Sequence record: MN342150
Direction: 5' to 3' (one strand)
From: Escherichia phage vB_EcoM_3HA11
Length of the DNA: 64,000 nucleotides
Shown here piece by piece: positions 1 to 59,866 of the stretch. Under the pieces are notes generated by a model. The model saw only the letters and a list, made by a program, of their open reading frames with translations. It did no database searches and had not been told where the DNA came from. Position numbers and translations under genes: made by a program. Each line of letters opens with the position of its first letter. Position 1 is the stretch's first letter.

Positions 1-21
1 TCCCGCTTCGACGGGGTTCTT
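1..21 (+). terminator. Truncated rho-independent terminator hairpin at window edge (cccg..cggg followed by ttctt)
   Basis: Same sequence as the complete terminator at 2211..2235; window begins inside the stem. Confidence 0.35.
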
Positions 22-56
22 ATTATACCTTTGTTCATAAATTTTATTAGTTCAGG

Positions 57-64
57 CTAAATAC
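57..64 (+). promoter_or_regulatory. Late-promoter-like box CTAAATAC
   Basis: CTAAATA(C/T) motif recurs 20-40 nt upstream of the start codons of structural genes in this window; resembles the T4 late promoter TATAAATA. Confidence 0.45.
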
Positions 65-92
65 CCCATATTGGTCATCCTTTATGGGGTAT
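61..92 (+). promoter_or_regulatory. 5' leader stem-loop (ATACCCCAT / ATGGGGTAT, 9-bp perfect stem) overlapping the G-run just upstream of the ATG
   Basis: Perfect inverted repeat 61..69 / 84..92 with 14-nt loop, directly downstream of the CTAAATA box and 5 nt before the start codon at 97. Confidence 0.45.
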
Positions 93-96
93 TATC

Positions 97-2193
97 ATGA
101 TTTCTCAATTCAATCAACCACGCGGCTCCACTTCCATAGAAGTTAACAAACAATCTATCGCTCGAAATTTCGGTGTCAAAGAAGACGAAGTCGTTTATTT
201 CACTGTCGGTATTGATCTCAGTGGATTTAAAGTAATTTATGATGAGTCTACCCAACGGGCTTATTCTCTCCCTTCCGGTATTGTTTCAGGGACAACTGCA
301 ATTAGTCTGGATGAAAGAGCTATCCTCACTCATTCCGCTGGCTCTGTTGACCTTGGGGAATTAGCAGTAAGCCGCGAAGAATATGTGACTTTACCTGGTT
401 CTTTTAATTTCGGCCATACCATTAATGTGAAAAATGAACTTCTTGTTCACGATGATGAAAAATATCGATGGGATGGTTCTTTGCCAAAGATAGTTGCCGC
501 TGGTTCTACACCTGAAACATCTGGTGGCGTTGGTATTGGTACATGGCTGAGTGTTGGTGACGCAGCATTTAGACAGGAAGCCAACAAAAAATTCAAATAT
601 TCAGTAAAGTTATCTGATTATTCTACATTACAGGATGCAGCGACAGCAGCCGTAGATGGATTGCTTATTGATGTTGACTACACTTTTACTGCAGATGAGA
701 GTGTAGATTTTAGCGGTAAAGTTTTAATCATTGAATGCAAGGGAAAATTCATTGGCGATGGTATGTTGGTTTGGAATGGTTTGGGTGCGGGTTCAGTAAT
801 TAAGAAACCGCACATGCATACTAAAACTACGCCGTATACTGTTTACCGATTCGATGCAAACGGTAATTGGGTTACAGACCCAACACAAGTTCTGGCATCT
901 GTTCAGCAGCGTTTGGATGTTGGATATAAGCCAAATATTAACGATTTAGATATTTGGGACGACCTTCCTGATAATGTAAAAAATCAGGTTGCTGGTGCTA
1001 CTTTGCGAATAATGAGCGGCGATAATATCATCGTAGAGAACCCAGAAGCTACATTTGGTGGTTATCTATTTACTTTATGTAATAGGATTCTTGTTAAGAA
1101 TCCACGCAATTTTATTGCTTTGGAATCGGGCATTACATTTGAGAACCATCATACAACTGCATGGGGTACTGGCAACTGGGTTGTTGGGGGTGAGATTAAA
1201 TATGGCTCTGGTTCCGCTGTACTGTTCATTCGCAATGATGGTGGTACAGACCATGATGGTGGAGTAAGGGATTTAATATCCTATCGCGTTGGAGAATCTG
1301 GTGTTAAAACCTATCAAAATGAAATAGGTGGTCGTTCAGCCAGGAACTACCGTTTAGTGTTCGACAATATAACTACAATCCAGTGTTACTATGATGGTAT
1401 TGATGTTAATGCTGACACAGGGTCGCCAACTGAACGTGTGGATGACTACTCACTCGCAGAGTATCCATGGTTCCACCTACCTACTCAACATATCATCCGT
1501 AATATTATTACTCGTGATTGTATGGGGATTGGTGCTTGGTGGGATGGTCAGAAAAATATTATTGATAATGTTGTTACTTATGAGGCCCATAAGGAAGGCG
1601 TCTTCGATAGGGGTACTAACAATGATATTACTAACATTACTGTAGTAGGTGCGAATAAGGATTTAACTAACCTAAATCAGATTACCTGTGAGGGAGGTAG
1701 TAGACTTCGTGGTATTAACATCCATGCATATACTACACAAGGTTACGCTATATACGCTCCGTCTTCAGAAGTAAGTAATGTTTCCTGTGCTGGTTCCGGT
1801 ACTAAGAAATTACTATGTACCTATATAAGCGATATTCAGGGAGGTAATATCAATGTTCAGCATAGTGCCAACCAAATGACACTTGCAATGCAACCTGCTA
1901 TGGGTGGTACTACAAACCCATCTTTGCTTATGACGGCAGATTGCCAGGTTGCTACACCAGGGGGTGAGGCAAGTATTGTCAAGCTTTCGGCAATTCAGGA
2001 GGGTGTACGTGTAGGTGAGTTTCAGCTTAACCGCTTAGGCTTTAAGCATATGAGTATACCTGCTGCCCCTTTACAATTACCAGAGAGCGCTCTGGAACAT
2101 AATTCATCTATAGGATTCTTCTTCGGAAGTGACGGAGCATTGAGGTTGCTTGCTAAAAAACCAGATGGAAGTTATGTAACATACACACTTTAA
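97..2193 (+). CDS. Tailspike / receptor-binding protein 1 (shared N-terminal anchor domain, distinct C-terminal domain)
   Basis: 698-aa ORF; first ~130 aa nearly collinear with the N-terminus of the ORF at 5129 (GSTS..SIAR.FG..EVVY..LSG.KVIYD..TQRAYSLP..GSVDLGELA..YRW.GSLPK) while the C-terminal parts differ: modular tailspike architecture. Confidence 0.6.
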   Translation: MISQFNQPRGSTSIEVNKQSIARNFGVKEDEVVYFTVGIDLSGFKVIYDESTQRAYSLPSGIVSGTTAISLDERAILTHSAGSVDLGELAVSREEYVTLPGSFNFGHTINVKNELLVHDDEKYRWDGSLPKIVAAGSTPETSGGVGIGTWLSVGDAAFRQEANKKFKYSVKLSDYSTLQDAATAAVDGLLIDVDYTFTADESVDFSGKVLIIECKGKFIGDGMLVWNGLGAGSVIKKPHMHTKTTPYTVYRFDANGNWVTDPTQVLASVQQRLDVGYKPNINDLDIWDDLPDNVKNQVAGATLRIMSGDNIIVENPEATFGGYLFTLCNRILVKNPRNFIALESGITFENHHTTAWGTGNWVVGGEIKYGSGSAVLFIRNDGGTDHDGGVRDLISYRVGESGVKTYQNEIGGRSARNYRLVFDNITTIQCYYDGIDVNADTGSPTERVDDYSLAEYPWFHLPTQHIIRNIITRDCMGIGAWWDGQKNIIDNVVTYEAHKEGVFDRGTNNDITNITVVGANKDLTNLNQITCEGGSRLRGINIHAYTTQGYAIYAPSSEVSNVSCAGSGTKKLLCTYISDIQGGNINVQHSANQMTLAMQPAMGGTTNPSLLMTADCQVATPGGEASIVKLSAIQEGVRVGEFQLNRLGFKHMSIPAAPLQLPESALEHNSSIGFFFGSDGALRLLAKKPDGSYVTYTL

Positions 2194-2210
2194 TTTATCT
2201 TGAGCAAAAA

Positions 2211-2235
2211 CCCCGCTTTGGCGGGGTTCTTATTA
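2211..2235 (+). terminator. Rho-independent terminator (ccccgc-tttg-gcgggg + T-rich tail)
   Basis: 6-bp GC stem, 4-nt loop, followed by ttcttatta; 18 nt after stop of ORF 97..2193. Confidence 0.6.
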
Positions 2236-2266
2236 TACCTTTGTTCATAAATTTTATTAGTTCAGA

Positions 2267-2274
2267 CTAAATAC
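2267..2274 (+). promoter_or_regulatory. Late-promoter-like box CTAAATAC
   Basis: Part of a ~95-bp intergenic cassette nearly identical to 1..96. Confidence 0.45.
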
Positions 2275-2302
2275 CCCATATTGGCAAATCCTTATGGGGT
2301 AT
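2271..2302 (+). promoter_or_regulatory. 5' leader stem-loop (ATACCCCAT / ATGGGGTAT), second copy
   Basis: Same inverted repeat as 61..92, upstream of the ATG at 2309. Confidence 0.4.
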
Positions 2303-2308
2303 TTTCAA

Positions 2309-5074
2309 ATGACCAGAAATGTAGAAGAATTATTCGGCGGCGTAATCACAGCTCCCCACCAGATTCCTTTCACGTATAAATCAAATGTCGGTGGAGAAAC
2401 TTTCCTTTCCTTGCCGTTCTATCCTGTCACTGGCGTAGTCACAATTAACGGCGGCATGCAAGTTCCGTTAGACAACTTCGAGATAGACGGGAATACGTTG
2501 AATCTCGGGCGCGCATTGTCCAAAGGCGATGTTGTGTATTGCTTATTCGATAAAATTCTTTCACCAGAAGACACTGCCAAAGGCATCCGCATATACAAAT
2601 TTCAAGCCGTGGGTGGAGAAACTGAATTCACGCCTGACTTTACTTCTTATGGTGTACAGTCTCTTTATATCGGTGGCGAGTACAAAACTCCTGATATAGA
2701 ATATTCGTACAACAGTACGACTGGGAAAGTGTCTTTGCAAACTGCATTGACTGCAGGCGTTTGGGTAGTCGCTGAAATCTCTGTTAAACAACCGAATATC
2801 AGTCCGGCGTTTGACCGCAGTATTCAAGAAATTGCCCGTTCTGCTAATGTGAAAGACTCTGAAGTCATCGTTAGTACGGACACCATATCTTTGTTGGATG
2901 GGAAGAAAGTTGTTTATGACATAGCGGCACAAACCAGTTATGGTTTACCAACCATTCCTGATGGTTCTGTCATTTCTACGATCTCAGACGGGAAATTGAA
3001 TTACAACCCAGGTGATGTGCAGGTTGATTTGTTGCCTTTAGAAGATTCATTTATTAATGTGATAAACACTCTGGGGCGCAATGATGGTGCCAAGTATATC
3101 GGAGAATGCCATTCTGTTGCTGATCTCAGGAATACTGAACCCACTATGGATGGACAACGCATTATTCTTAAGCAACACACTGCGGGTACTCTTCTTGGTG
3201 GAGGGGTATTCCGTGCGTTAATTGATGGTACAGGAAAGACTGATGATAACGGTACTGTGATCAAAACTGTTGGCGGCGCAGCCTGGTTACGTGTTAATGC
3301 TGATAGAGTTAACCCATTCATGTTTGGTGCTTTGGGTGGTTCTAATGATGATACTATTCCAGTACAATCTTGTGTGGACAGTGGTAAGGCCACACAATTA
3401 ACTGGTATACATTACGTTAGCAATATCCAGTTAAAATATAATACGTCGTCTATTTATGGGTCTGGATTACATTACTCCAGGTTGCATCAGTTGCCTTCTG
3501 CTACTGGGAATTGTATTACCATAAAAGATACATGCTCCCTTATTGTATTAGACTCCTTTGGGGTATATGGCACAGGTGCACAACAAGGCACATCATTTAC
3601 TGCGGGTACAACAGGTATCTATATAGAAACTCCTTCAGGTCTCTCAGCCGATTATCCGTTCCACACTACCGCAGACCCAAGACGCGACTTGTGTATTTCT
3701 AAGGTCCATATAGCAGGTTTTGATGAATATGGGTTAAATATTGATAGTGGTAACTTTAGTGTTACTACAGATTCTCTTTTAGTCAACCACATCAATCAGG
3801 TGGGCGTCCGTTGTGCTACTACTGATTGGACTTGGACAAATATCCAGGTTAATACCTGCGGTAAACAATGTCTGGTTCTTGATGGTTGTGGTAATGGTCG
3901 TATTATTGGTGGTAAATTCATTTGGGCTAACTGGCAACCTTATGGTACAGTAGGACAGTTCCCAGGCATTACTATTAATAATAGCCAGAATATGGTTATT
4001 AATGGTATTGAGGTACAAGATTGTGGCGGGAATGGCATTGAGATTAGCGATTCATATTCAATTTCCATGAACGGATTGAACACCAATCGTAACGGCATCA
4101 ACGCTAACAACACTTTCTACAACATCGTATTTAACAAAAGTGATGCAGTTATCAACGGATTCGTAGGACTCAATTATGCCGCGAATAGTGGTTCAGGTGC
4201 TAACTCTAGTGCGGGCAATTTTCAGTTCCTGTCTAATGATTGCAGCGTCACCATTAATGGTGTGGTTGAGACTGGTTATATGGGCATTAACTTTATTGGT
4301 GATAACAATATTATCAACCCCACAAATTCCGACCTGAGCATTAACGGATTGGTTAATTATTCCAAGACTGGTTTGCAAACCATGAACGAGACCCCTACAT
4401 TTGATGGTGTTAGCACTACACCTGTTTATGTAAGTGTCCCATCTTCTGTAGGGCAAGTAAATGGTCTGAGACTATCACAAGCCAACAAAGATAAATTACT
4501 GTACTCAAGAACAGCAGGTCCAGAAGGTATTACCATGGCTGCTGTTGTAGTACCTACCATATCTGGAGCTGAAGTATTTAACTTCATGGCCATTGGTTCA
4601 GGGTTTAGTGATACATCCAACAGTCTTCATCTTCAATTAGTTATAGACGCTTCCGGAAAACAAACAATTGCTTTGCTATTGGGGGGCGATGGTACAACCC
4701 AAATTTTATCTGGGGATTTACCTAACGACCTTAAACTACAAAGTGGTGTGCCATATCATATAGCTATTGGTGCTAAACCTGGATATTTCTGGTGGAGTAT
4801 TCTTAATATTCAGACGGGTAAGAGAATCAGACGGTCATTCCGAGGCGCTTATTTAGCTGTACCATTTAATTCTATATTCGGATTAACTTCTTCATTAACA
4901 TTCTTCTCGGATAGCAATGCTGGTGGGGATGCCTGTTCTGGTGTAGGTGCTAAAGTGTATGTTGGTATGTTCTCTTCTGAGAATGATTATGTAGCTTCAC
5001 GGTACTACAACCTGATTAATCCTGTAGACCCTAATAAGTTAATTAGTTACCGTATATTGGATTCTTCTATTTAA
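2309..5074 (+). CDS. Tailspike / tail fibre protein 2 with parallel beta-helix-like repeats
   Basis: 921 aa counted from the ATG at 2309 (ORF track opens at 2294; start chosen by analogy with the first cassette copy where the ATG inside the hairpin is not the start); Gly/Asn-rich repetitive segments (..VINGIEVQDCGGNGIEISD..NGLNTNRNGINANN..) typical of pectate-lyase-like beta-helices. Confidence 0.55.
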   Translation: MTRNVEELFGGVITAPHQIPFTYKSNVGGETFLSLPFYPVTGVVTINGGMQVPLDNFEIDGNTLNLGRALSKGDVVYCLFDKILSPEDTAKGIRIYKFQAVGGETEFTPDFTSYGVQSLYIGGEYKTPDIEYSYNSTTGKVSLQTALTAGVWVVAEISVKQPNISPAFDRSIQEIARSANVKDSEVIVSTDTISLLDGKKVVYDIAAQTSYGLPTIPDGSVISTISDGKLNYNPGDVQVDLLPLEDSFINVINTLGRNDGAKYIGECHSVADLRNTEPTMDGQRIILKQHTAGTLLGGGVFRALIDGTGKTDDNGTVIKTVGGAAWLRVNADRVNPFMFGALGGSNDDTIPVQSCVDSGKATQLTGIHYVSNIQLKYNTSSIYGSGLHYSRLHQLPSATGNCITIKDTCSLIVLDSFGVYGTGAQQGTSFTAGTTGIYIETPSGLSADYPFHTTADPRRDLCISKVHIAGFDEYGLNIDSGNFSVTTDSLLVNHINQVGVRCATTDWTWTNIQVNTCGKQCLVLDGCGNGRIIGGKFIWANWQPYGTVGQFPGITINNSQNMVINGIEVQDCGGNGIEISDSYSISMNGLNTNRNGINANNTFYNIVFNKSDAVINGFVGLNYAANSGSGANSSAGNFQFLSNDCSVTINGVVETGYMGINFIGDNNIINPTNSDLSINGLVNYSKTGLQTMNETPTFDGVSTTPVYVSVPSSVGQVNGLRLSQANKDKLLYSRTAGPEGITMAAVVVPTISGAEVFNFMAIGSGFSDTSNSLHLQLVIDASGKQTIALLLGGDGTTQILSGDLPNDLKLQSGVPYHIAIGAKPGYFWWSILNIQTGKRIRRSFRGAYLAVPFNSIFGLTSSLTFFSDSNAGGDACSGVGAKVYVGMFSSENDYVASRYYNLINPVDPNKLISYRILDSSI

Positions 5075-5082
5075 AAATATAC

Positions 5083-5100
5083 CCCTCTTCGGAGGGTATT
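5083..5100 (+). terminator. Terminator-like hairpin (ccctc-ttcg-gaggg) after tailspike 2
   Basis: 5-bp stem with ttcg tetraloop followed by tatttac; weak T-tract. Confidence 0.3.
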
Positions 5101-5128
5101 TACTAGAGAAAAACAGGAGATTCTTATT

Positions 5129-14003: not shown

Positions 14004-14011
14004 CTAAATAC
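14004..14011 (+). promoter_or_regulatory. Late-promoter-like box CTAAATAC
   Basis: 23 nt upstream of the ATG at 14034; followed by imperfect inverted repeat taccttc..gagggta. Confidence 0.4.
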
Positions 14012-14033
14012 CTTCAAAATTGAGGGTAAAGTC

Positions 14034-14675
14034 ATGGCTACTTCAAAATATTTCAACTATACAGCACACCAAGGTACTCAGAAATTAATTGACGACTTGG
14101 TGGTCGAGATGATACAACTACGTGGGATTGACGTCAAGTATATTCCACGTTCCATCGTTGAAAAATACCCAATTTTAAACGAGGCTGAACATAAATTCGA
14201 CCAGGCGTTCGATATCGAAGTATACATGCAAGATTACCAAGGCTTTAACACCCAAATGTGGGAGAAGTTTGGCGGTATTCAATTACAAGATGAAGTGACG
14301 TTCACCATTGCTCGTCGCCGTTTTTCGGAAGTGATTGGTAATGGGCCAGGACTTGAGCAGATGCCTCAAGAAGGTGATTTGATATACCTCCCAATGGCGA
14401 ACAAGATATTCAAAGTGAATAACCCGAATAACGACGAAGAATTTATGCAATTCGGTAAATGGTACACATATTCCTTACCGTGCACGTTGTTTCAATATGG
14501 TAATGAAGATTTTGATACTGGTGTATCTGAAATTGACGACATCGATAAACGTTTACAAGATCTAGACGGCGATGGTGTCTATAAAGATGCCAGTCTACAG
14601 ACAGATAACCAATTTGCGGACGAAATAGAGAAAGATCTTTCGCCCAATAAAATGAAGATAGACTTCGGGGAATAA
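14034..14675 (+). CDS. Neck protein, T4 gp14-like
   Basis: 213 aa; segment ..DDLVVEMIQLRGIDVKYIPR.. resembles recalled T4 gp14 (..[21 protein letters not shown]..); gene order. Confidence 0.6.
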   Translation: MATSKYFNYTAHQGTQKLIDDLVVEMIQLRGIDVKYIPRSIVEKYPILNEAEHKFDQAFDIEVYMQDYQGFNTQMWEKFGGIQLQDEVTFTIARRRFSEVIGNGPGLEQMPQEGDLIYLPMANKIFKVNNPNNDEEFMQFGKWYTYSLPCTLFQYGNEDFDTGVSEIDDIDKRLQDLDGDGVYKDASLQTDNQFADEIEKDLSPNKMKIDFGE

Positions 14676-18261: not shown

Positions 18262-18302
18262 CTTTCAAATTGAGCGAAACTCTACCGAGAAGGAATAACA
18301 TT

Positions 18303-25079: not shown

Positions 25080-25087
25080 CTAAATAC
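25080..25087 (+). promoter_or_regulatory. Late-promoter-like box CTAAATAC
   Basis: 28 nt upstream of the scaffold gene ATG at 25115. Confidence 0.4.
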
Positions 25088-25114
25088 TGAAAAATCGTTC
25101 AGAAGGAAACTATC

Positions 25115-25954
25115 ATGAAACCTGAATTGCAAAATCTGTTTGAAGGCGTTAACGGCATCAGCCCAGATTTCCTGGATAAAGTATCCAATTTGCTGGAATC
25201 GAAAGTTGAAGCGGCTCGTCTGAAAGCTATCCAAGAAACCGAAGCAGCTGGCAACGTCGAGCGCCTGAATCTGGTAGAATCTCACCAGAAAGAAATCGCC
25301 GACCTGAAAGAAAATTTCATTCTGCAATTGGCTGGGAAAGTTGACTCATTCCTCAACGCGGTGGTTGAAGAATGGGCTAACAAAAATGCCCCAGCTATTG
25401 ACGCTCAGATCAAAACTGAAGCTGCTGAACGCTTCCTTACTGGTTTCTCCAACGTGCTGAAAGAAGCAGGTGTGAGTTTCGCTACTGACCCAGACGGTCA
25501 GATTGCCGCCCTCACCAGTCGCCTTGCTGAAGCAGAACAACGCGCCAACATGGCTAATACAGAGTTGAGCCAACTCAAAGAAAGCGAGACTAAACGCCAG
25601 CGCACCGACGTAATTGATCGCATTTGTGAAGGCATGGTTGACACCAAGAAAGACACTGTTGTCAACCTGCTGGAAGGTATTGAATTCCAGACCGAGTCTG
25701 AATTCGAATCGCGTGTTCGCACCTTCCGTAATCTGGTAGAAGGTAAAGATGACTTCTCTGACAAAGTCGGTAAAGACAATGAAAAGGGTAAGCCGGATGG
25801 CGACAAGGCTGAAAAAGACATCAAAGAAGGTAAGAAACAGAAAAAAGAAGGTGATGATGTTGACGACGACAAAGACGACGACGACAAAGACGAAGTTGGC
25901 AAAGAAGTCAACGAAGCCGTCCGTCGCCAGATCAGCGCCATTCTGAACGGCTAA
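25115..25954 (+). CDS. Prohead scaffolding protein (gp22-like)
   Basis: 279 aa, helical, strongly acidic C-terminus (DDVDDDKDDDDKDE); position before major capsid gene. Confidence 0.6.
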   Translation: MKPELQNLFEGVNGISPDFLDKVSNLLESKVEAARLKAIQETEAAGNVERLNLVESHQKEIADLKENFILQLAGKVDSFLNAVVEEWANKNAPAIDAQIKTEAAERFLTGFSNVLKEAGVSFATDPDGQIAALTSRLAEAEQRANMANTELSQLKESETKRQRTDVIDRICEGMVDTKKDTVVNLLEGIEFQTESEFESRVRTFRNLVEGKDDFSDKVGKDNEKGKPDGDKAEKDIKEGKKQKKEGDDVDDDKDDDDKDEVGKEVNEAVRRQISAILNG

Positions 25955-30748: not shown

Positions 30749-30773
30749 TTAAATACCCCCAAAATTGGGGGTA
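30749..30773 (+). promoter_or_regulatory. Late-promoter-like box TTAAATAC with downstream hairpin taccccc-aaaatt-gggggta
   Basis: Same promoter-plus-leader-hairpin architecture as upstream of the tailspike genes; ATG at 30779. Confidence 0.35.
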
Positions 30774-30778
30774 TTTTT

Positions 30779-31507
30779 ATGAACGCACAAATCTATGATG
30801 TCCTTTCCTCGGGCAATGCATTTAGCAATCCGCTTCCATCCCTCTCCGGTCCTTCTCAGGATTTAATAACCAGTGGCATCACCAATATACCATTGATAAC
30901 TGCCAACGCTACTCCGGAGATGCAGGCGGCTATGGCAGCTGGTGGACTAACACCAGAAAAACTCACAGCAGCCAGCACCATGTATAGCACCGCCAACACA
31001 GGGATAACAACTCTGAACACATATGGCGACCAAAGTATCAATGACGCGTATTCTCGCATCGGTACTTCCGTGTCATACAAATCAGGTCTAAAGGGTATAT
31101 CACGAGAGCCAAACAATTGTGATTTGATCAACAAGGCTTTTGGCGTTGTTCAGGATTTAGGACGCCAATGGCTGAATGCTATGGAAGGCGCTCTACAGAC
31201 CGTAACAAACAAGATATCGGAATTGTATGAGATGATCATGGAAGGTGCCTCAGAAGGAATGGCAAAGCTGCAAGAATTGGCTGCAGAAGTAACGGGACAC
31301 ATCAATACTGCGATAACCGCAGTCAACGGGGTTATAAGTGATATTACAGATGGTATAGCCGCAGAACTTGCTCACATTGAAAGTATGATCAAAGAGTGCT
31401 TGAATTTCTCTTTTGCTAACGTGCTCGGGGAATGGGCTAAAGATCTGTGCGCCGGAGGTGTTATTGACAAAATAGGGACTCCAGCATTAAAAGAATCCCT
31501 GAAATAA
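30779..31507 (+). CDS. Hypothetical protein (Ala/Thr/Gly-rich)
   Basis: 242-aa ORF; no motif recognised. Confidence 0.4.
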   Translation: MNAQIYDVLSSGNAFSNPLPSLSGPSQDLITSGITNIPLITANATPEMQAAMAAGGLTPEKLTAASTMYSTANTGITTLNTYGDQSINDAYSRIGTSVSYKSGLKGISREPNNCDLINKAFGVVQDLGRQWLNAMEGALQTVTNKISELYEMIMEGASEGMAKLQELAAEVTGHINTAITAVNGVISDITDGIAAELAHIESMIKECLNFSFANVLGEWAKDLCAGGVIDKIGTPALKESLK

Positions 31508-33184: not shown

Positions 33185-33930
33185 TGGTTTCCCTGCAGGC
33201 TTTGCGTAAACTCAATGATTTTGAGAACCGCCATTACACATTTCAGCAGTATGCCTTGCCCTTTAAGGAACTGACTTGTGTAACAACGGAAAACGGTCGC
33301 CATTATGTGTCTCCAACAGGCGTCAAACTCACATCTGTAACAACGATGTTGGGGCGTACCGGAGATCATACATGGTTAGAAGCCTGGCGGGACAAGTTGG
33401 GACACGAAGCCGCCGATATCGAAACAGAGCGTTGCGCAGACCGTGGGGAAAAACTTCATTTGGCCTGTGAATTATATCTCAAAAACAGGCCGATGAAGGA
33501 AGTGTTAGAAGCCGCAGGGGAATACGTGTTTATGTTTAAACAGGTCTTCCCCTACCTGAACAAAATGAGCAAGATATACGCACAGGAGATTCCGTTATAT
33601 AGCGAAGTCCTTGGTCTTGCTGGTCGTGTTGATCTCATCGGCGTTTACGAGGGAATCCCTAGCATTATCGATTTCAAAACATCCAACACCCTGAAAACTC
33701 GGAGCATGATAGAAGATTACAGCATTCAACTATGCCTGTACTCAGTCATGTTTCAACAGATGTTTAATGTTAAGATCGAACGTTTGGTCAATATTATATC
33801 TAACGAAAATTCTCTTGTCCCGACTATAATCGAATTTAATCGAAAAGACGTTATTTCTAAAATGTTTGATCGTGTTCGCCTGTATCATAAAATGGATAAA
33901 GAACAGAACGGGATCTGGGCGGATCGCTAA
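33184..33930 (+). CDS. PD-(D/E)XK superfamily nuclease
   Basis: Motif RVDLIGVY..(8 aa)..IIDFKTS fits the D..(D/E)XK catalytic core (YqaJ/RecB-like); TGATG start/stop overlap with upstream gene. Confidence 0.5.
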   Translation: MVSLQALRKLNDFENRHYTFQQYALPFKELTCVTTENGRHYVSPTGVKLTSVTTMLGRTGDHTWLEAWRDKLGHEAADIETERCADRGEKLHLACELYLKNRPMKEVLEAAGEYVFMFKQVFPYLNKMSKIYAQEIPLYSEVLGLAGRVDLIGVYEGIPSIIDFKTSNTLKTRSMIEDYSIQLCLYSVMFQQMFNVKIERLVNIISNENSLVPTIIEFNRKDVISKMFDRVRLYHKMDKEQNGIWADR

Positions 33931-33958
33931 ATACTCCATAATATTGGGGGAATTAGTG

Positions 33959-35464
33959 ATGTCAGAAATTCAAATAATCAAAGTTAACGAAGTTAGAATG
34001 CGGATCCTTGCCGAGGACTATATCCGTGAAGAACTCAACGATTATTTCAAATTTGAAGATCCTAATTTCCAACCAAATCCATTCAGTAAATGGGACGGCG
34101 TGGTACGCTTGTTCACAAAGAGTTCTGGTCTTATAGACATCGGTCTGTTGTTTGAGGTGTTTAAGTTCTGTAAGATGAATGGTTACACCATCAAATTAGA
34201 TCCCGCCTTAAAATATATCCAAGATATACCAGACGAAGAGATACATACATTTATCAATTCCCTGAACGCTGTTTACCGTGATGAAAACAAGCAATACCAA
34301 ATCGCAACAGTGCGTGACTATCAATTCGACTCAGTGGCCACAGCAATACGCCAATCCAGATGCGTGCTAGAAGCGGCTACGAGCGCGGGTAAATCGTTTA
34401 TTTTGTACATCATGGCGCGTTACTACAGGCAACGCAGAGAGGCACTGGAAAGCAATCTCAAGACGTTGATCGTTGTACCTTCCATTCACTTGGTGACTCA
34501 GTTGTATGACAACTTTGAGGAATACAGCCACGGGACAGATTGGAATCCGATGATGAATGTCCAGATGATATGTGAAGGTGCAACAAAGGATATATTCAAG
34601 CCCATAGTGATTTCCACTTGGCAGGGAATTCAGGATCAGCCCAAAGAATGGTTCCATCAATTTGGGGATATTGTTGTCGACGAAGTACACACATCTAAAT
34701 CTGAAAAGCTATCTTATATCCTGAACAACTGCATTAATGCTGACCAAAGATTGGGTGTAACCGGAACCCTCGCGAATACAAAGGTTGCAGGGTTGCAGGT
34801 CGTTGCCCATTTTGGAGCATACCATAAAATTATTACAGCACGTGATTTAATAAATCTTGGTTATGCCGCAGATATCCATGTCAACATGATTGAAGTCATA
34901 CATCCCATGGCGGATTGTATAGAAATGCATGGTGCTGAGTACCAAAAGGAAATAGAATTCCTCATAGCGAATGAACGTCGAAACGAGTTAATAGCCAGAA
35001 TGGCATTGTCTTTGAAAGGTAACGTGGCCGTTATGTTCGAACGCATTGACGCCCATATGATGATTGTTTATGAAATGCTTTCAGCCGTTAAGAAAAACGT
35101 ATTTGTCATTAACGGCGAAGTTAAGACAGAAGTTCGTAAACAAATTCAGGCAGCGATGGAAGAGGGTGAAGATATAACACTGCTGGCATCTTATGGGACC
35201 ATGCAACAGGGAGTGTCGATCAAAAAACTTCATCATTTGATATTGGCACACCCGAGTAAATCCTATATCCGTGTCATACAGACTTTAGGGCGTCTCATGC
35301 GCCAGCACTCTTCAAAGGATGTCGCCAAGATCTGGGATTTAGTAGACAACTTGCGTTACAATGGATTCTCGTACAACCATGCTCTCAGACATTCGCATGA
35401 GAGATATAAATTTTATCTTATGGAGCGACACCCTGTACAAATGAAGAAAGTGTCGCTCCAGTAA
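33959..35464 (+). CDS. uvsW: UvsW-like SF2 DNA helicase
   Basis: Walker A ATSAGKS, DEVH-like VVDEVH, and segment WQGIQDQPKEWFHQFG matching recalled T4 UvsW WQTVVKQPKEWFSQFG. Confidence 0.85.
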   Translation: MSEIQIIKVNEVRMRILAEDYIREELNDYFKFEDPNFQPNPFSKWDGVVRLFTKSSGLIDIGLLFEVFKFCKMNGYTIKLDPALKYIQDIPDEEIHTFINSLNAVYRDENKQYQIATVRDYQFDSVATAIRQSRCVLEAATSAGKSFILYIMARYYRQRREALESNLKTLIVVPSIHLVTQLYDNFEEYSHGTDWNPMMNVQMICEGATKDIFKPIVISTWQGIQDQPKEWFHQFGDIVVDEVHTSKSEKLSYILNNCINADQRLGVTGTLANTKVAGLQVVAHFGAYHKIITARDLINLGYAADIHVNMIEVIHPMADCIEMHGAEYQKEIEFLIANERRNELIARMALSLKGNVAVMFERIDAHMMIVYEMLSAVKKNVFVINGEVKTEVRKQIQAAMEEGEDITLLASYGTMQQGVSIKKLHHLILAHPSKSYIRVIQTLGRLMRQHSSKDVAKIWDLVDNLRYNGFSYNHALRHSHERYKFYLMERHPVQMKKVSLQ

Positions 35465-54006: not shown

Positions 54007-54285
54007 ATGAACCGTACTGATTTTATCGCTCACATCGCCCAGACTCAGGGTATGACCAAAGGCGAAGCAGAGAAGATCGTGGCATCTTTTATCAACGGCG
54101 TAAAAACTGCAGTCGCAGCTGGCCAATCTGTCCAATTCGTCGGCTTCGGCGCGTTTGAAGTTAAACATCAGGAAGCGCGCACTGGCCGCAACCCGCTGAA
54201 CGGGCAAGCGATTCAGATCGAAGCGAAAAATGTTGTTAAATTCAAAGTCGGCGAAGGTCTGAAAGCTGCCGCCAACGGCCAGTAA
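54007..54285 (+). CDS. HU/IHF-family DNA-binding protein
   Basis: VGFGAFEVKHQEARTGRNPLNGQAIQI matches bacterial HU signature GFG.F.V..R.ARTGRNP.TG. Confidence 0.85.
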   Translation: MNRTDFIAHIAQTQGMTKGEAEKIVASFINGVKTAVAAGQSVQFVGFGAFEVKHQEARTGRNPLNGQAIQIEAKNVVKFKVGEGLKAAANGQ

Positions 54286-56938: not shown

Positions 56939-57466
56939 ATGATTGAAATATACACTGACGGGGCATCTTCCCCGCAGAAGACACAAGCCGCAGGTTGGGC
57001 ATTTGCTATCAGTCCAATCACTGGAGAGCAATGGAAAGTGTTTTATGGGTATTTACCCCCACCGTCAACGAATAATATCGCTGAGTTGCTTGGGGTTATA
57101 AACGCCTTGAAGATTCTATGGAAATTCTCTAATTGCGGGGAACGCTGTATTCCCTCAGCCCGTATTATATCCGACAGCCAATATGTTATCAATAGTGTTT
57201 TGGAGTGGCGTAGAAAATGGGAATATGAAGGGATGCCGCCTAAGAACACAGAACTTCTGCTCGAGTTGTTCGATTATTATGACAAAGTTTGTTCAATTTG
57301 TGAACTTGAATTAAAATGGGTGAAAGGTCATGCGGGGAATATCGGCAACGAAATCGCAGATCAGTGGAGCGTCAGAGCCAAAGAAAATAGCTCGATGGTT
57401 CTTGAAAATAATCGTTTTCTGGTCAGAAAGGTTGTTGGTTCTTTCAATGAATTCATTGGTATTTGA
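56939..57466 (+). CDS. rnhA: Ribonuclease HI (bacterial type)
   Basis: IYTDGAS ... TNNIAEL ... ISDSQYV ... WVKGHAG..NE.AD motifs of RNase HI catalytic core. Confidence 0.8.
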   Translation: MIEIYTDGASSPQKTQAAGWAFAISPITGEQWKVFYGYLPPPSTNNIAELLGVINALKILWKFSNCGERCIPSARIISDSQYVINSVLEWRRKWEYEGMPPKNTELLLELFDYYDKVCSICELELKWVKGHAGNIGNEIADQWSVRAKENSSMVLENNRFLVRKVVGSFNEFIGI

Positions 57467-58248
57467 GGATTATCACAATGGGTATGAATTTTGTAGACAG
57501 AGGTGATAACGTCACCAAATATTTCACAGACGAAGATAACGATCGAGTTGTGGGGATATTGCGTGATTGGATCCCTGCTCGTAAAAAGGCATTAGCCGAA
57601 GGAACACCCCTACCAAGAATCCCCAATTATGTGGCCATGAATGTTCAGATGATTATTAAGAACATGAGTATGCGCTACAACTATCGTGATTATCCATACC
57701 GCGAAGACATGGTCAGTGAGGCCGTTGTCAACATCCTTCGTTACCTCCATACATTTGATGTCAGTCATATTGGCAAGAAAGGAAAAATCAATTTTTTCTC
57801 TTGGGTAACGATGTGCGCCGACCGTTCATTCGCCAAGAAACTCACCAGTGAAGAAGAACACAATTATATCAAGTTGCGTTCCTTTGAAGAAGCAGGTGGG
57901 TTCGCTGCATTATCGGATGACCCAGACTTCCAACAACAAACCTTCGTTGATAGCACTGGGATAACGATGGACTTTCGTGAGCGTATCGGAAATTTTGAAA
58001 CTAAGAAAGAAGCCCAGCGCGAAAAGGAACGCCAAAAGCAAATCGCCATCAAAGAAGAGGAAAAGAATAAGAAAATTCCTCGCGGTATACTTCAATGTCT
58101 CACAAAGAGTGAAAATACCATTACCGCCGACGCCGAAGATAATTCAGACCATGACTTCGGCTCTACTCAATTTAGTCTTGAAGATATAATGGACAGCCCC
58201 ACATTGTTAGCCGAATCAGTTGGAGAAAAGAATAATGGCGATTGCTAA
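57463..58248 (+). CDS. Late-transcription sigma factor gp55-like (tentative)
   Basis: 261 aa; adjacent to gp47/gp46-like genes (T4 gene 55 neighbours 47); acidic C-terminal tail; assignment mainly positional. Confidence 0.35.
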   Translation: MRIITMGMNFVDRGDNVTKYFTDEDNDRVVGILRDWIPARKKALAEGTPLPRIPNYVAMNVQMIIKNMSMRYNYRDYPYREDMVSEAVVNILRYLHTFDVSHIGKKGKINFFSWVTMCADRSFAKKLTSEEEHNYIKLRSFEEAGGFAALSDDPDFQQQTFVDSTGITMDFRERIGNFETKKEAQREKERQKQIAIKEEEKNKKIPRGILQCLTKSENTITADAEDNSDHDFGSTQFSLEDIMDSPTLLAESVGEKNNGDC

Positions 58249-58487
58249 AATTGGCGATTTACACATCGGGAGCCGCAATGGTTCCCGTTACGTTCGTGAA
58301 TTCATAAAGAATTATCTCATCAACTATTTTATTCCCGAATTGGTAGATGCAGACATTAAAGAAGTTTGGCAATTCGGCGACACATTTGATGTTCGTAAAT
58401 TTATGTACGGGCGCGACAAAGATTGGTTGAAAGATGAACTGACGCCAGCCCTGAGAAAGGCGGGTATCAAATGGAATGGCATCGTTG

Positions 58488-59001
58488 GAAACCATGATAT
58501 CACCTTAGAAGAATCTAACCGTATCAACTGGCCATCCTATCTGAATGAATTAGCGCCAGACGTCTATCATTATTACAGTGAACCCACTGAAGTTTCGATT
58601 GAAGGCGAAAAGGTATTGCTTCTCCCATGGATCAATAAAGAGAATTATGATGCATCTGTTAAAGCGATACAAGATACAGACGCCAAGTACTGTTTTGCGC
58701 ATCTGGAGTTGGCAGGGTTCAAAATGTACCAGTCCTCTGTATGTGATAAAGGTCAGATCGACGTGGCGCTCCTTTCCAAGTTCGAACGCGTGGATACCGG
58801 ACATTTCCATACCCGTTCGATGGAAGGTAACATTCAGTATATTGGGACTCCTTATCACCTTACCTGGGAAGACCATAAAGACGGGACGAACCGAGGATTC
58901 TATGTAGACGATATGAAAGGTGGGGAATTGTTTATTCCCAACAGCGAGCAACAAACGTTGTTCCGATTCATAGAATACGATTACACCCAAATGTCTTCCG
59001 A
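58488..59001 (+). repeat. Tandem direct repeat, copy 1 (514 bp)
   Basis: Identical to 59002..59515; ORF pairs 58550..59041 / 59064..59504 and 58578..58907 / 59092..59421 are offset by exactly 514 bp. Confidence 0.85.
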
Positions 59002-59515
59002 GAAACCATGATATCACCTTAGAAGAATCTAACCGTATCAACTGGCCATCCTATCTGAATGAATTAGCGCCAGACGTCTATCATTATTACAGTGAACCCA
59101 CTGAAGTTTCGATTGAAGGCGAAAAGGTATTGCTTCTCCCATGGATCAATAAAGAGAATTATGATGCATCTGTTAAAGCGATACAAGATACAGACGCCAA
59201 GTACTGTTTTGCGCATCTGGAGTTGGCAGGGTTCAAAATGTACCAGTCCTCTGTATGTGATAAAGGTCAGATCGACGTGGCGCTCCTTTCCAAGTTCGAA
59301 CGCGTGGATACCGGACATTTCCATACCCGTTCGATGGAAGGTAACATTCAGTATATTGGGACTCCTTATCACCTTACCTGGGAAGACCATAAAGACGGGA
59401 CGAACCGAGGATTCTATGTAGACGATATGAAAGGTGGGGAATTGTTTATTCCCAACAGCGAGCAACAAACGTTGTTCCGATTCATAGAATACGATTACAC
59501 CCAAATGTCTTCCGA
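59002..59515 (+). repeat. Tandem direct repeat, copy 2 (514 bp)
   Basis: See copy 1. Confidence 0.85.
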
Positions 59516-59866
59516 CACCGAAGGAAATTGGATAGACCCAGATTGGTTAAACAATGATTTGGGTATTGAAGGACAAATCGTTAAGGTGATTGTACAGAAC
59601 CGTGATAATGCTAAGCATTATGAAAAGTTCTGCGACGCGCTGAAGCGTTGTAAATGCATCGATTATAACTTTATAGACCGGACTATCACAGTTGCGTCTG
59701 AGAAGGTAGAAGTCACTGAAGAGATGGTGGCGACTGATGCTGTGGAAGTCCTGAAGAAAGATATCCGCGCCGCCAATAATATCCAGCGCCCTGAAAATGT
59801 TTGCAAATTAGCAGAACAATTCTATAATGCTGCCCAACAACGCCTGAACACATTGGATGCATAATA

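Follow-up and report, generated by a model that had tools for sequence, protein, structure and literature searches.

The two tailspike genes at the start of the sequence analysed here are each preceded by a short cassette that is probably made up of a terminator and a T4-type late promoter set inside a hairpin masking the Shine-Dalgarno (SD) sequence, with the effect that read-through RNA is silenced and RNA from the cassette's own promoter is translated. Predicted folds, together with the analogy to T4, indicate that only RNA begun at the cassette's own late promoter is most likely translated. This promoter-in-hairpin device is known from T4 and has not previously been pointed out in the Ackermannviridae. 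The window (the whole stretch analysed, 64,000 nt of Escherichia phage vB_EcoM_3HA11, record MN342150) is from a Kuttervirus (Ackermannviridae; a Salmonella phage genus), and its positions 1-2400 are 100% identical to phage Guerrero.

The tailspike cassettes

The intergenic stretches at about 1..96 and 2210..2308 had been called near-identical in a sequence-only reading of this DNA. They form a direct repeat of 96 nt within the window (2-97 versus 2212-2307; 91% identity), and the parts listed in that reading (terminator, promoter box and hairpin over the SD) are correct in both copies. The parts and their genes are as follows:

1..16, + strand: terminator-like GC hairpin of 5 pairs, 4 of them G-C, with the tail TTCTTATTAT; 5' side cut by the window start
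17..56, + strand: AT-rich spacer of copy 1, matching 2229-2266 except for the base preceding the box
57..63, + strand: CTAAATA box of tailspike 1, at -12..-6 relative to a predicted start at ~69 (range 68-70)
60..93, + strand: hairpin of copy 1, AATACCCCATA (60-70) with TATGGGGTATT (83-93), and an inner GG (73-74) with CC (79-80)
97..2193, + strand: tailspike 1 gene, with a P22-type tailspike domain (PF09251, E 1e-106) and a TSP1/Gp66 N-terminal domain (PF18668, E 5e-27)
2209..2228, + strand: terminator-like hairpin 3' of tailspike 1, of 8 pairs, 6 of them G-C
2267..2273, + strand: CTAAATA box of tailspike 2, predicted start ~2279; box unchanged in 18 sequences, some of them from other genera
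2269..2304, + strand: hairpin of copy 2, AAATACCCCATA (2269-2280) with TATGGGGTATTT (2293-2304), and an inner GG (2283-2284) with CC (2290-2291)
2309..5074, + strand: tailspike 2 ("tail fiber") gene, from ATG 2309; the in-frame ATG 2294, which lies within the 3' arm, is not its start

Each cassette opens with a hairpin that resembles a rho-independent terminator in its GC stem, its loop of 4-6 nt and its T-rich tail (1-16 and 2209-2228). The first, which sits 3' of the upstream tail-fibre gene, is truncated by the window start; the full terminator in phage Guerrero is AAAAATCCCGCTTCGACGGGGTT. The second reads AACCCCGC TTTG GCGGGGTT, then CTTATTAT, has the same T-rich tail as the hairpin at 1-16, and is labelled "terminator" in OR122688. 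The spacer that follows (~39 nt) is conserved within Kuttervirus and not in other genera, and no conserved -35-like element was found in it at 17..56. Most records carry two to three copies of the cassette.

The inverted repeat beyond the spacer, previously described as a perfect one of 9 bp, is present and spans 11-12 bp. Its 3' arms contain the SD sequence GGGGT, at 86-90 in copy 1 and 2296-2300 in copy 2. The G runs (86-89 and 2296-2299) thus lie in the 3' arm as had been claimed; they are separated from the ATGs at 97 and 2309 by 7 and 9 nt rather than by 5-8 nt. Start-codon calls are corrected in the process, for example that of tailspike 2 to 2309 rather than 2294, and in LIMEstone1 the counterpart of the upstream ATG (2294) meets an in-frame TAA.

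The predicted RNA fold has an energy of -20.5 kcal/mol for copy 1 (z -4.7) and -18.9 kcal/mol for copy 2 (z -3.3), with 0 of 200 shuffles as stable in either case. Leaders that begin at the predicted start fold no better than shuffled sequence (z +0.1 for copy 1, from 69; z +1.2 for copy 2). In the predicted folds of both cassettes, the probability that the SD is unpaired is 0.00-0.01 in the long RNA versus ~0.45 in the leader from +1. Across 18 sequences from several genera the box, the two stems and the GG/CC pair do not change; the loop and the upstream sequence vary. With stems invariant in all 18 sequences, no covariation is possible within the tailspike cassette, and because the cassette stems never vary, the covariation evidence comes from paralogous promoters and other orthologous sets. 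A search of Rfam 15 with the whole window gave no match at gathering score, and positions 1-2400 gave only chance-level matches (E ~0.1).

The CTAAATA box and the start of late transcription

Judged by its placement across genomes, the CTAAATA box is the -10-type element of a T4-type late promoter in the Ackermannviridae. TAAATA boxes lie 19-42 nt upstream of ~23 gene starts, chiefly those of virion-protein genes; the boxed genes include the tailspikes, tail fibre, wedge, neck, sheath, scaffold, gp5 and endolysin. TAAATA is invariant in the 23 and 29 promoter candidates of two genomes, and in this promoter comparison there is no conservation upstream of -12 and no -35 element, positions -5..-2 are G-poor and positions -1..+3 are A-rich. 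The authors of the LIMEstone1 record (HE600015) annotate the same boxes as late -10 signals. As a string, CTAAATAC is marginally enriched, with 5 exact occurrences on the + strand versus 1.45 expected (5 of 100 shuffles reach 5), and with one mismatch allowed there is no enrichment in the window. The box is informative solely through its position ahead of genes.

A gene for the expected reader of the CTAAATA boxes lies in the window:

57463..58248, + strand: gp55-type late sigma factor gene (phrog_234 "late sigma transcription factor", E 3.8e-53)

The gp33 coactivator is also encoded (PF16805, E 4.6e-19), and the C-terminal domain of a gp45-type clamp gives a weak match (E 3e-4, 21.2 bits) that is below the Pfam cut-off of 25 bits. 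In Aeh1 the late promoter CTAAATA begins at -12, and in T4 the box TATAAATA occupies -13..-6 (PMC1524935). Placed by this T4/Aeh1 geometry, transcription would start about 6 nt past the box, at ~69 and ~2279. The CBA120 paper records that the late promoter of this group was not identified at that time, and our literature search found no transcriptome or start-site map for Ackermannviridae or Kuttervirus. A second family motif, TTCAAT-N14-TATAAT, could give rise to early read-through transcription; with 13 matches versus 11 expected, it shows no enrichment in the window.

We propose that the cassettes are self-contained units of expression, each lying between a pair of late genes. The upstream transcript would be stopped by the GC hairpin and the T-rich tail that follows it, and ~40 nt further on CTAAATA would serve as the sole promoter element for host RNA polymerase with the gp55-type sigma, assisted by gp33 and the sliding clamp. 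The predicted start falls at the 3' end of the 5' arm, and the last bases of the box together with the next 6-7 nt would complement the 11-12 nt that hold the SD GGGGT before the ATG. RNA that enters from upstream, either by terminator read-through or from earlier promoters, would carry both arms, fold at about -19 to -20 kcal/mol, hide the ribosome-binding site and be poorly translated. With its predicted start among the last bases of the 5' arm, the late mRNA most likely lacks this arm and has an open SD, and the hairpin would therefore form only in RNA from upstream. Own-promoter RNA, which cannot make the hairpin, would be freely translated, and the synthesis of each tailspike would thereby be bound to its own late promoter. 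Where transcription starts, whether and how much read-through RNA is made, and how translation responds are inferences from the sequence. In both tailspike cassettes the terminator lies 40 nt upstream and the upstream genes are also late, which counts against a need for silencing.

Pairing with the Shine-Dalgarno sequence at other late genes

Further late genes in the window have leaders of related layout:

30749..30781, + strand: structural gene leader; box TTAAATA (30749-30755), stem AAATACCCCCA / TGGGGGTATTT (30751-30761 / 30766-30776), ATG 30779
14004..14036, + strand: neck protein gene leader; box 14004-14010, stem TACCTTCA / TGAGGGTA (14009-14016 / 14021-14028) with one G·U, ATG 14034
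25080..25117, + strand: scaffold gene leader; late box, weak 5-bp stem CTGAA (25087-25091) / TTCAG (25098-25102)
33927..33961, + strand: UvsW-type helicase gene leader; late box, stem CTCCA (33934-33938) / TGGGG (33945-33949)

The recurrences that the sequence-only reading saw at 30749..30781 and, more weakly, at 14004..14034 are both real, the former with 11 bp (-19.8 kcal/mol, z -5.0) and the latter with 8 bp including the one G·U (-14.3 kcal/mol, z -3.75). In some other Kutterviruses the box at the 30749 site is the canonical TATAAATA. The neck hairpin is kept in most genera and absent in LIMEstone1, in which the gp5 and G186 hairpins are likewise absent or weak. Weaker versions of the layout occur at 33927, 25080 and 7488; the scaffold stem lies beside the SD, not over it, and the same stem is found in LIMEstone1. 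The wedge stem in two Klebsiella-type phages gives a mixed signal (+1 pair, -2 pairs).

The arrangement is present at ~40% of late promoters in two genera, and the genes that have it include the endolysin, a RuvC-like nuclease and an intron endonuclease. Genome-wide counts cover Guerrero outside 50-63 kb (~13 kb) and, from within that part, the endolysin leader, which was read manually. The 5' arms begin at -10..-6, only the last 3-5 bases of the box join the stems, and the 3' arms lie over or directly beside the SD, ending 0-5 nt before the start codon (18 start-flanking stems); loops range from 4 to >20 nt across promoters. Most hairpin-bearing genes follow co-directional genes. Two observations count against a gate: (i) a convincing hairpin is lacking at about half of the boxes and (ii) the baseplate wedge promoter has a strong hairpin after a divergent gene, where read-through is not obvious.

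In two genomes the pairing is under selection, as judged from permutation (p ~1e-5), compensatory changes and moved G·U pairs. Positions -8..+6 form duplexes with their own SD region of -8.2 kcal/mol on average versus -4.6 kcal/mol with the SDs of other promoters, a result matched in 0 of 100,000 permutations. The repeat on the 29 author-annotated late promoters of LIMEstone1 gave -7.6 versus -4.4 kcal/mol (p ~1e-5). Because the permutations hold composition fixed, base composition is disfavoured as the cause. In an alignment of 19 stems, whose rows were registered by maximising complementarity and are thus biased towards structure, 80% of cells are paired versus 64% in shuffles, double-sided changes number 41 versus 12.6 expected, and the covariation score is 0.49 versus 0.16 in shuffles and <=0.18 in slid registers. 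None of 500 shuffles of this alignment reaches any of the three observed values.

Individual promoters provide examples. The RuvC promoter orthologs show a compensatory change from A-U to U-A, and at the UvsW promoter the LIMEstone1 ortholog has TCCCA / TGGGA, a compensatory change from C-G to U-A. The endolysin 5' arm differs between the two genera, CCTCTGC versus CCTTCGC; each version pairs with GCGGAGG, with the position of the G·U shifted. Stem mismatches comprise 10 G·T versus 2 A·C, a small count that is partly non-independent. ATACCCC is found <=50 nt upstream of GGGGTAT in 10 of the 24 occurrences of the latter (chance probability 0.004).

Predicted folds extend this to accessibility. 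Long leaders range from -14 to -20.5 kcal/mol (z -3.3 to -5), and leaders taken from +1 have z -1 to +1.2. Over 24 promoters the probability that the SD is unpaired is 0.31 in the long versus 0.52 in the short RNA (Wilcoxon p 3e-5), and in the context of -60..+15 it falls below 0.15 for 7 of 23 late-promoter genes versus 3 of 69 other genes (Fisher p 0.002). Sense and antisense folding, compared as an indication of whether RNA or DNA pairs, did not differ (p 0.48), because most stems are perfect Watson-Crick.

Alternative explanations and the T4 precedent

There are several other possibilities for these hairpins. On a model that follows the sequence-only reading, transcription would start upstream of the 5' arm, and a hairpin in the late leader would throttle or time translation, perhaps until a phage factor opens it. 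The hairpin is indeed stable, conserved and over the SD, and a second weak box-like string, CATAAATT, lies in the spacer at 36-43. However, conservation across genera begins exactly at CTAAATA, with unrelated sequence upstream; CTAAATA acts as a -10-type box at >20 genes, with only its last 3-5 bases in stems; and a 12-bp stem over the SD of the main late message would strongly cut the synthesis of abundant virion proteins. We therefore regard this model as quite improbable. The idea of translational control remains sound, the hairpin being under selection, and what is probably wrong is a leader hairpin in the late mRNA, given the box geometry and the z of +0.1 and +1.2 for the short leaders. 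Transcripts starting downstream of the 5' arm, which were held to speak against hairpin control, are the expected state here, as in the T4 mechanism. It also seems unlikely that the hairpin next to the box serves chiefly to stop transcription a second time, or as an insulator, just before the ATG, with SD pairing secondary. T-rich runs follow some 3' arms (GGGGGTATTTTTATG at 30766, GGGTATTTTTATG before RuvC and GGAGGTATTTTCTTATG before the endolysin), and the LIMEstone1 authors label two such hairpins factor-independent terminators, but much of this "U tract" itself pairs with the box AAATA, and many members (wedge, neck, G190, G205) have no T run. The terminator scan passed over 60-93 and 2269-2304, which differ from a rho-independent terminator in their interior of 12-13 nt, A/T-closed stem, interrupted T run and overlap with the SD. 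Moreover, a terminator needs no placing of its 3' arm at the SD, 0-5 nt from the start codon, as is seen in 18 stems.

Phage N4 has DNA hairpin promoters. This precedent, and the fact that the inverted repeat spans the predicted start site, would fit a repeat that acts as DNA, either as a palindromic operator for a dimeric late-promoter regulator or as a cruciform or hairpin promoter. We consider such a role very unlikely, since the arm sequences diverge widely between promoters yet stay complementary, which is the signature of nucleic-acid pairing and not of a protein site, loops vary from 4 to >20 nt, most mismatches read as G·T on the sense strand (10 versus 2) and changes in the endolysin arm are tolerated only as G·U. 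It is scarcely credible that the complementarity is a by-product of composition, in which a pyrimidine-rich stretch after the box meets a purine-rich SD and the two copies reflect one recent duplication. Positions -5..-2 are G-poor in nearly all promoters, SDs are G-rich and the two cassette copies are not independent, but the composition-fixed permutations give p ~1e-5 in two genomes, the stems reach into ATA/TAT and AT/AT flanks, compensatory changes occur, and across genera the stems are invariant and the loops variable. A further explanation is complementary to the promoter in a hairpin and does not exclude it: the 96-nt unit, near-identical on both sides of tailspike 1, may be a homologous-recombination boundary for tailspike exchange or loss between related phages. 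Other Kutterviruses keep the cassette from the terminator stem on and differ in the 3' end of the upstream gene (L014, L016, L019), the ~39-nt spacer is the same in both copies though unconserved in other genera, and there are 2-3 cassette copies in most records. Recent gene conversion or selection for equal tailspike expression would also explain the conservation, and we consider the boundary role quite conceivable while leaning against it.

The promoter in a hairpin has close precedents. At T4 e, soc, 49, I-TevI to III and segB, and at Aeh1 mobE, a late promoter lies in a hairpin that masks the ribosome site of upstream-initiated RNA (PMC3014915, PMC2988022). As at T4 e, soc, 49 and I-TevI, a T4-type late box stands immediately upstream of the SD, the 5' strand lies around or after the box and the 3' strand includes the SD, and the late RNA would start within the helix and leave it open (here by the predicted start). 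The functional counterparts of e, 49 and I-TevI, namely the endolysin, the RuvC-like junction-resolving nuclease and the intron endonuclease, share the layout. The known T4 cases concern late genes that lie within early or middle transcription units. Here the layout also precedes genes for major virion proteins (tailspikes, tail fibre, baseplate wedge, neck) located after other late genes, sometimes just after a terminator; it extends to ~40% of late promoters, and the Ackermannviridae cases are predicted from sequence. The late box of Aeh1 is likewise the variant with C at -12, and the logic of a hairpin that sequesters the SD is shared (PMC1524935; Gibb and Edgell, cited in PMC2988022). Aeh1 belongs to a separate family (T4-like, Straboviridae), and one gene only is described there.

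The box and the first bases of the 5' arm are the same as in CTAAATAcCcc, a motif whose original source is reportedly Adriaenssens et al. 2012 in Arch Virol. It is given as a "unique regulatory motif" for Viunalikevirus/Ackermannviridae, with no mechanism attached, in PMC7283392. Our comparison suggests that the cCcc extension is conserved through pairing with the SD G run, which offers a mechanistic reading for a motif left unexplained in the genome papers of the family. Some "terminators" annotated over gene starts are probably translational gates.

A wider reading is tentative and, taken as a whole, doubtful: late genes of the Ackermannviridae may be built around the promoter in a hairpin as a rule, and not just as a safeguard used now and then. 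Some 40% of late promoters, those of the main receptor-binding proteins among them, would belong to units, each made of terminator, promoter, gate and SD, that are insulated at the level of translation. Output would then be set by a gene's own promoter only, fixing the ratios in the branched tailspike complex, tailspike genes would be swappable between phages as plug-in modules, and the consensus CTAAATAcCcc would have been shaped by pairing with a G-rich SD. The general picture of phage gene control would stay unchanged. The findings suggest that a T4 regulatory device reaches a different phage family, one under development against Salmonella, E. coli O157, Klebsiella and Dickeya. Phage re-targeting swaps tailspike genes, and inserts that keep or lose the 5' arm, or that are driven by read-through, would differ greatly in expression.

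Anatomy, relatives and genomic source of the tailspike cassettes

The first 2.4 kb of the window is 100% identical to Salmonella phage Guerrero (Kuttervirus; OP610151) and ~98-99% identical to many further Kuttervirus genomes (Ackermannviridae), and another tail-fibre gene lies upstream of the window start in the same direction. The sequence-only reading had described a repeated intergenic cassette of terminator, box and hairpin in this region. The repeat is real: positions 2-97 and 2212-2307 form a 96-nt direct repeat with 91% identity, one copy before each of two tailspike genes (copy 1 and copy 2), and both contain all three elements.

1-16, copy 1: terminator-like GC hairpin with T-rich tail, cut by the window edge
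2209-2228, copy 2: terminator-like GC hairpin with T-rich tail
Between terminator and box: AT-rich spacer of 39-40 nt, identical in copies 1 and 2
57-63 (copy 1) and 2267-2273 (copy 2): CTAAATA heptamer (the box)
From within the box onward: inverted repeat, its 5' arm starting within CTAAATA, its 3' arm holding GGGGT
97 and 2309: tailspike ATGs, 7 or 9 nt after the G run
97-2193: ORF of tailspike 1, P22-type, with TSP1/Gp66 N-terminal domain
2309-5074: ORF of tailspike 2, or 'tail fiber'

An inverted repeat had been noted at 9 bp; it exists and is longer. Copy 1 has 11 bp (60-70 paired to 83-93), copy 2 has 12 bp (2269-2280 paired to 2293-2304), and each has a small inner GG/CC pair. Folding energies of the RNA are -20.5 and -18.9 kcal/mol for copies 1 and 2, matched by 0 of 200 dinucleotide shuffles. 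The copies differ in the terminator loop, the base preceding the box, the hairpin loop and the pre-ATG spacer; the stems are free of differences. Folding also bore out the suggested recurrence of this layout at 30749 and 14004.

Matches to the 118-nt region ahead of tailspike 2 come from 280 phage records; those beyond Kuttervirus, in phages of Klebsiella, Dickeya, Shigella and Yersinia, are confined to the 45-50 nt running from box to ATG, with 90-96% identity. In an 18-sequence alignment CTAAATACCCCATATTGG and TATGGGGTAT are invariant, the hairpin loop varies and six sequences are unrelated 5' of the box, a conservation pattern that fits a functional unit starting at the box; the alignment itself shows no covariation. 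Kuttervirus genomes keep the entire unit, starting at the terminator stem, also where they differ in the 3' end of the gene before it, which suggests that the cassette may also be a boundary of exchangeable tailspike modules. The 39-nt spacer (17-55 and 2229-2265) is 100% identical between copies, kept in Kuttervirus and unrelated in other genera. Its conservation exceeds the expected need of a T4-type promoter and may be explained by gene conversion in the recent past, by a recombination boundary or by an upstream element that has escaped recognition.

The start of tailspike 2 differs among records (ATG 2294 in Guerrero, ATG 2309 in OR122688). ATG 2294 sits within the 3' arm of the hairpin and lacks a Shine-Dalgarno sequence (SD), and in the Dickeya phage LIMEstone1 (HE600015) the upstream ATG runs into an in-frame TAA. 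We therefore place the start at 2309; the longer annotation is probably wrong, judging from these sequences. The gap between tailspikes 2 and 3 (5075-5128) is without a clean CTAAATA box. It contains a hairpin at 5079-5099, ATACCCCTC TTCG GAGGGTAT, directly after TTAAAAATA, with ATACCC / GGGTAT arms as in the cassettes, lying upstream of the SD (AGGAG, ~5116) and not over it. Possible identities of this hairpin are a degenerate cassette, a weak terminator and an RNA end-stabiliser.

Between 26000 and 35500, the coordinate offset to Guerrero grows from ~129 nt at the capsid gene to ~302 nt at the helicase gene; thus, the genome of the window is a close relative with several indels and not Guerrero. 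A gene for a gp47/SbcD-type recombination nuclease holds a perfect 300-nt direct repeat (58488-58787 and 59002-59301, 514-nt spacing). A 1201-nt query covering it spans 702 nt in all 8 relatives listed, one of them 100% identical, so the window carries a tandem duplication of ~500 bp. The duplication splits the gene into ORFs 58220-59011 and 59130-59864; this disruption may be genuine or may have arisen in assembly.

The box as a probable T4-type late promoter

Genes of the T4 type for late transcription are present in these phages: one for a gp55-type late sigma factor lies at 57463-58248, and a gp33 coactivator is also encoded. The sliding-clamp gene gives a sub-threshold Pfam match only, to its C-terminal domain; a gp45-type clamp gene is annotated in Guerrero and LIMEstone1. 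We surveyed Kuttervirus sequence for late boxes over ~144 kb, comprising the window, the 30 kb that precede it and 50 kb from Guerrero, and found NTAAATA 19-42 nt ahead of the start codons of tailspikes, tail fibre, baseplate wedge, neck, sheath, scaffold, gp5 and others. Aligned on the box, these promoters are G-poor at -5 to -2 and A-rich at -1 to +3, and no conservation was found upstream of -12 in this survey. By its sequence, the pattern is that of a T4-type late promoter. In the LIMEstone1 record the depositors label the same TAAATA strings '-10 signal, putative late promoter', and in other Kutterviruses the 30749 site has the canonical TATAAATA.

The leaders at 14016-14022, 18267-18272 and 30761-30767 carry AAAATTG or AAATTG at the predicted start site. 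These strings resemble A/U-rich binding sites of the T4 translational repressor RegA, a homolog of which is annotated in these phages; they may simply be a preferred initiating sequence.

The T4 late box spans -13 to -6, and the variant CTAAATA of Aeromonas phage Aeh1 starts at -12 (PMC1524935). Applying this geometry to the cassettes places +1 at 69 and 2279, so that transcripts would begin at the 3' end of the 5' arm. In the Ackermannviridae literature we found no measured start site or read-through RNA.

Pairing between promoter and ribosome-binding region

For 23 candidate promoters, the -8 to +6 segment was paired with the 18-nt pre-ATG region of its own gene or of the others. Duplexes with the own partner averaged -8.2 kcal/mol versus -4.6 with other promoters. 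The own-partner mean was reached by 0 of 100,000 permutations, and in 9 cases the own partner ranked first among the 23 in either direction. The test was replicated on LIMEstone1, from a different subfamily, using the 29 author-annotated late promoters for which both box and start codon were usable. The means were -7.6 versus -4.4, with p as in the Kuttervirus test, and ten promoters lay at or below -9 kcal/mol, compared with 7.6% of mismatched pairs. An SD-unpaired probability below 0.15 (-60 to +15 context) was found for 7 of 23 late-promoter genes versus 3 of 69 others in the same genome (Fisher p 0.002). ATACCCC lies within 50 nt upstream of 10 of the 24 GGGGTAT occurrences (chance, 0.4%).

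In a 19-stem alignment, where the register of every row was picked by complementarity, 80% of cells pair versus 64% in shuffles, double-sided changes number 41 versus 12.6 expected, and the covariation score is 0.49, compared with 0.16 for shuffles and no more than 0.18 when the register is slid. Changes are also seen between orthologous promoters. The RuvC promoter reads CCCATATC / GATATGGG in one phage and CCCATAAC / GTTATGGG in others, and the UvsW promoter CTCCA / TGGGG in Kuttervirus versus TCCCA / TGGGA in LIMEstone1. For the endolysin 5' arm, one genus has CCTCTGC and the other CCTTCGC; GCGGAGG is the partner of both, with the G·U pair shifted in position. Mismatches within stems are G·T (n = 10) or A·C (n = 2), an excess that favours sense-strand pairing, in small numbers.

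Long and short RNAs, rival readings and precedents

RNA that includes the box, as in a transcript entering from upstream, folds better than shuffled sequence (z -4.7 for copy 1, -3.3 for copy 2). RNA from +1 shows no such advantage over shuffles (z +0.12 and +1.21). The interpretation proposed from the sequence is thus partly supported: control of translation is likely, but a hairpin within the late leader is probably not its means. The same contrast between long and short RNA is seen at 30749 and 14004. With +1 predicted at the end of the 5' arm, transcripts of the cassette promoter most likely lack the hairpin, which would form exclusively in RNA coming from upstream.

There are other readings of the hairpin. 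It may have a role in stopping upstream transcription, possibly alongside a role as a translational gate: T-rich runs follow several of the hairpins and two are annotated as terminators in LIMEstone1, but a simple terminator scan did not flag those of the cassettes. A palindrome acting at the DNA level is unlikely because the arms vary between promoters while remaining complementary. The best explanation, which we consider fairly probable, is a T4-type late promoter set inside an SD-masking hairpin, after a terminator, and duplicated before two tailspike genes. As for purpose, we can only guess that silencing of read-through RNA may tie the output of each tailspike to its own promoter, or may serve to block early read-through. 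Some observations weigh against the explanation: each cassette directly follows a terminator, and the genes in front of it are themselves late; the baseplate wedge promoter has a strong hairpin although the preceding gene is divergent, and about half of the boxes are without a clear hairpin.

In T4 (e, soc, 49, I-TevI, I-TevII, I-TevIII and segB) and Aeh1 (mobE), a late promoter lies within or on the 5' side of an SD-sequestering helix; RNA reading through from early or middle transcription is silenced at translation, while late RNA has its start within the helix and yields protein (PMC3014915, PMC2988022). The geometry of this device matches the Kuttervirus layout. Among the best hairpins in Kuttervirus and LIMEstone1 are those of the endolysin (AAATACCTCTGCA / TGCGGAGGTATTT), a RuvC-like junction nuclease (13-15 bp) and the intron-encoded endonuclease I-LimII, which correspond in function to T4 e, 49 and I-TevI. 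In LIMEstone1 a late box is fused to an SD-covering hairpin at 54223-54282 (endolysin), 92858-92923 (ortholog of window gene 30779) and 139325-139360 (I-LimII); the first two hairpins, overlying gene starts, are annotated 'factor-independent terminators'. Two other geometries occur there at ~58521 and ~59383: a terminator-like hairpin with the box as loop, ATCCCCCT AAATAC AGGGGGAT, and a 5' arm CGGGG upstream of the box, the box in the loop and a 3' arm CCCCG abutting the SD.

The mechanism is already textbook for T4; for Ackermannviridae, we found no description of an SD-masking late-promoter hairpin in the accessible literature. A genome paper on a related phage named CTAAATAcCcc a 'unique regulatory motif' of the group, with no mechanism given (PMC7283392). 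The SD-masking layout appears unusually widespread in Ackermannviridae, and its pairing would account for this extended promoter motif.
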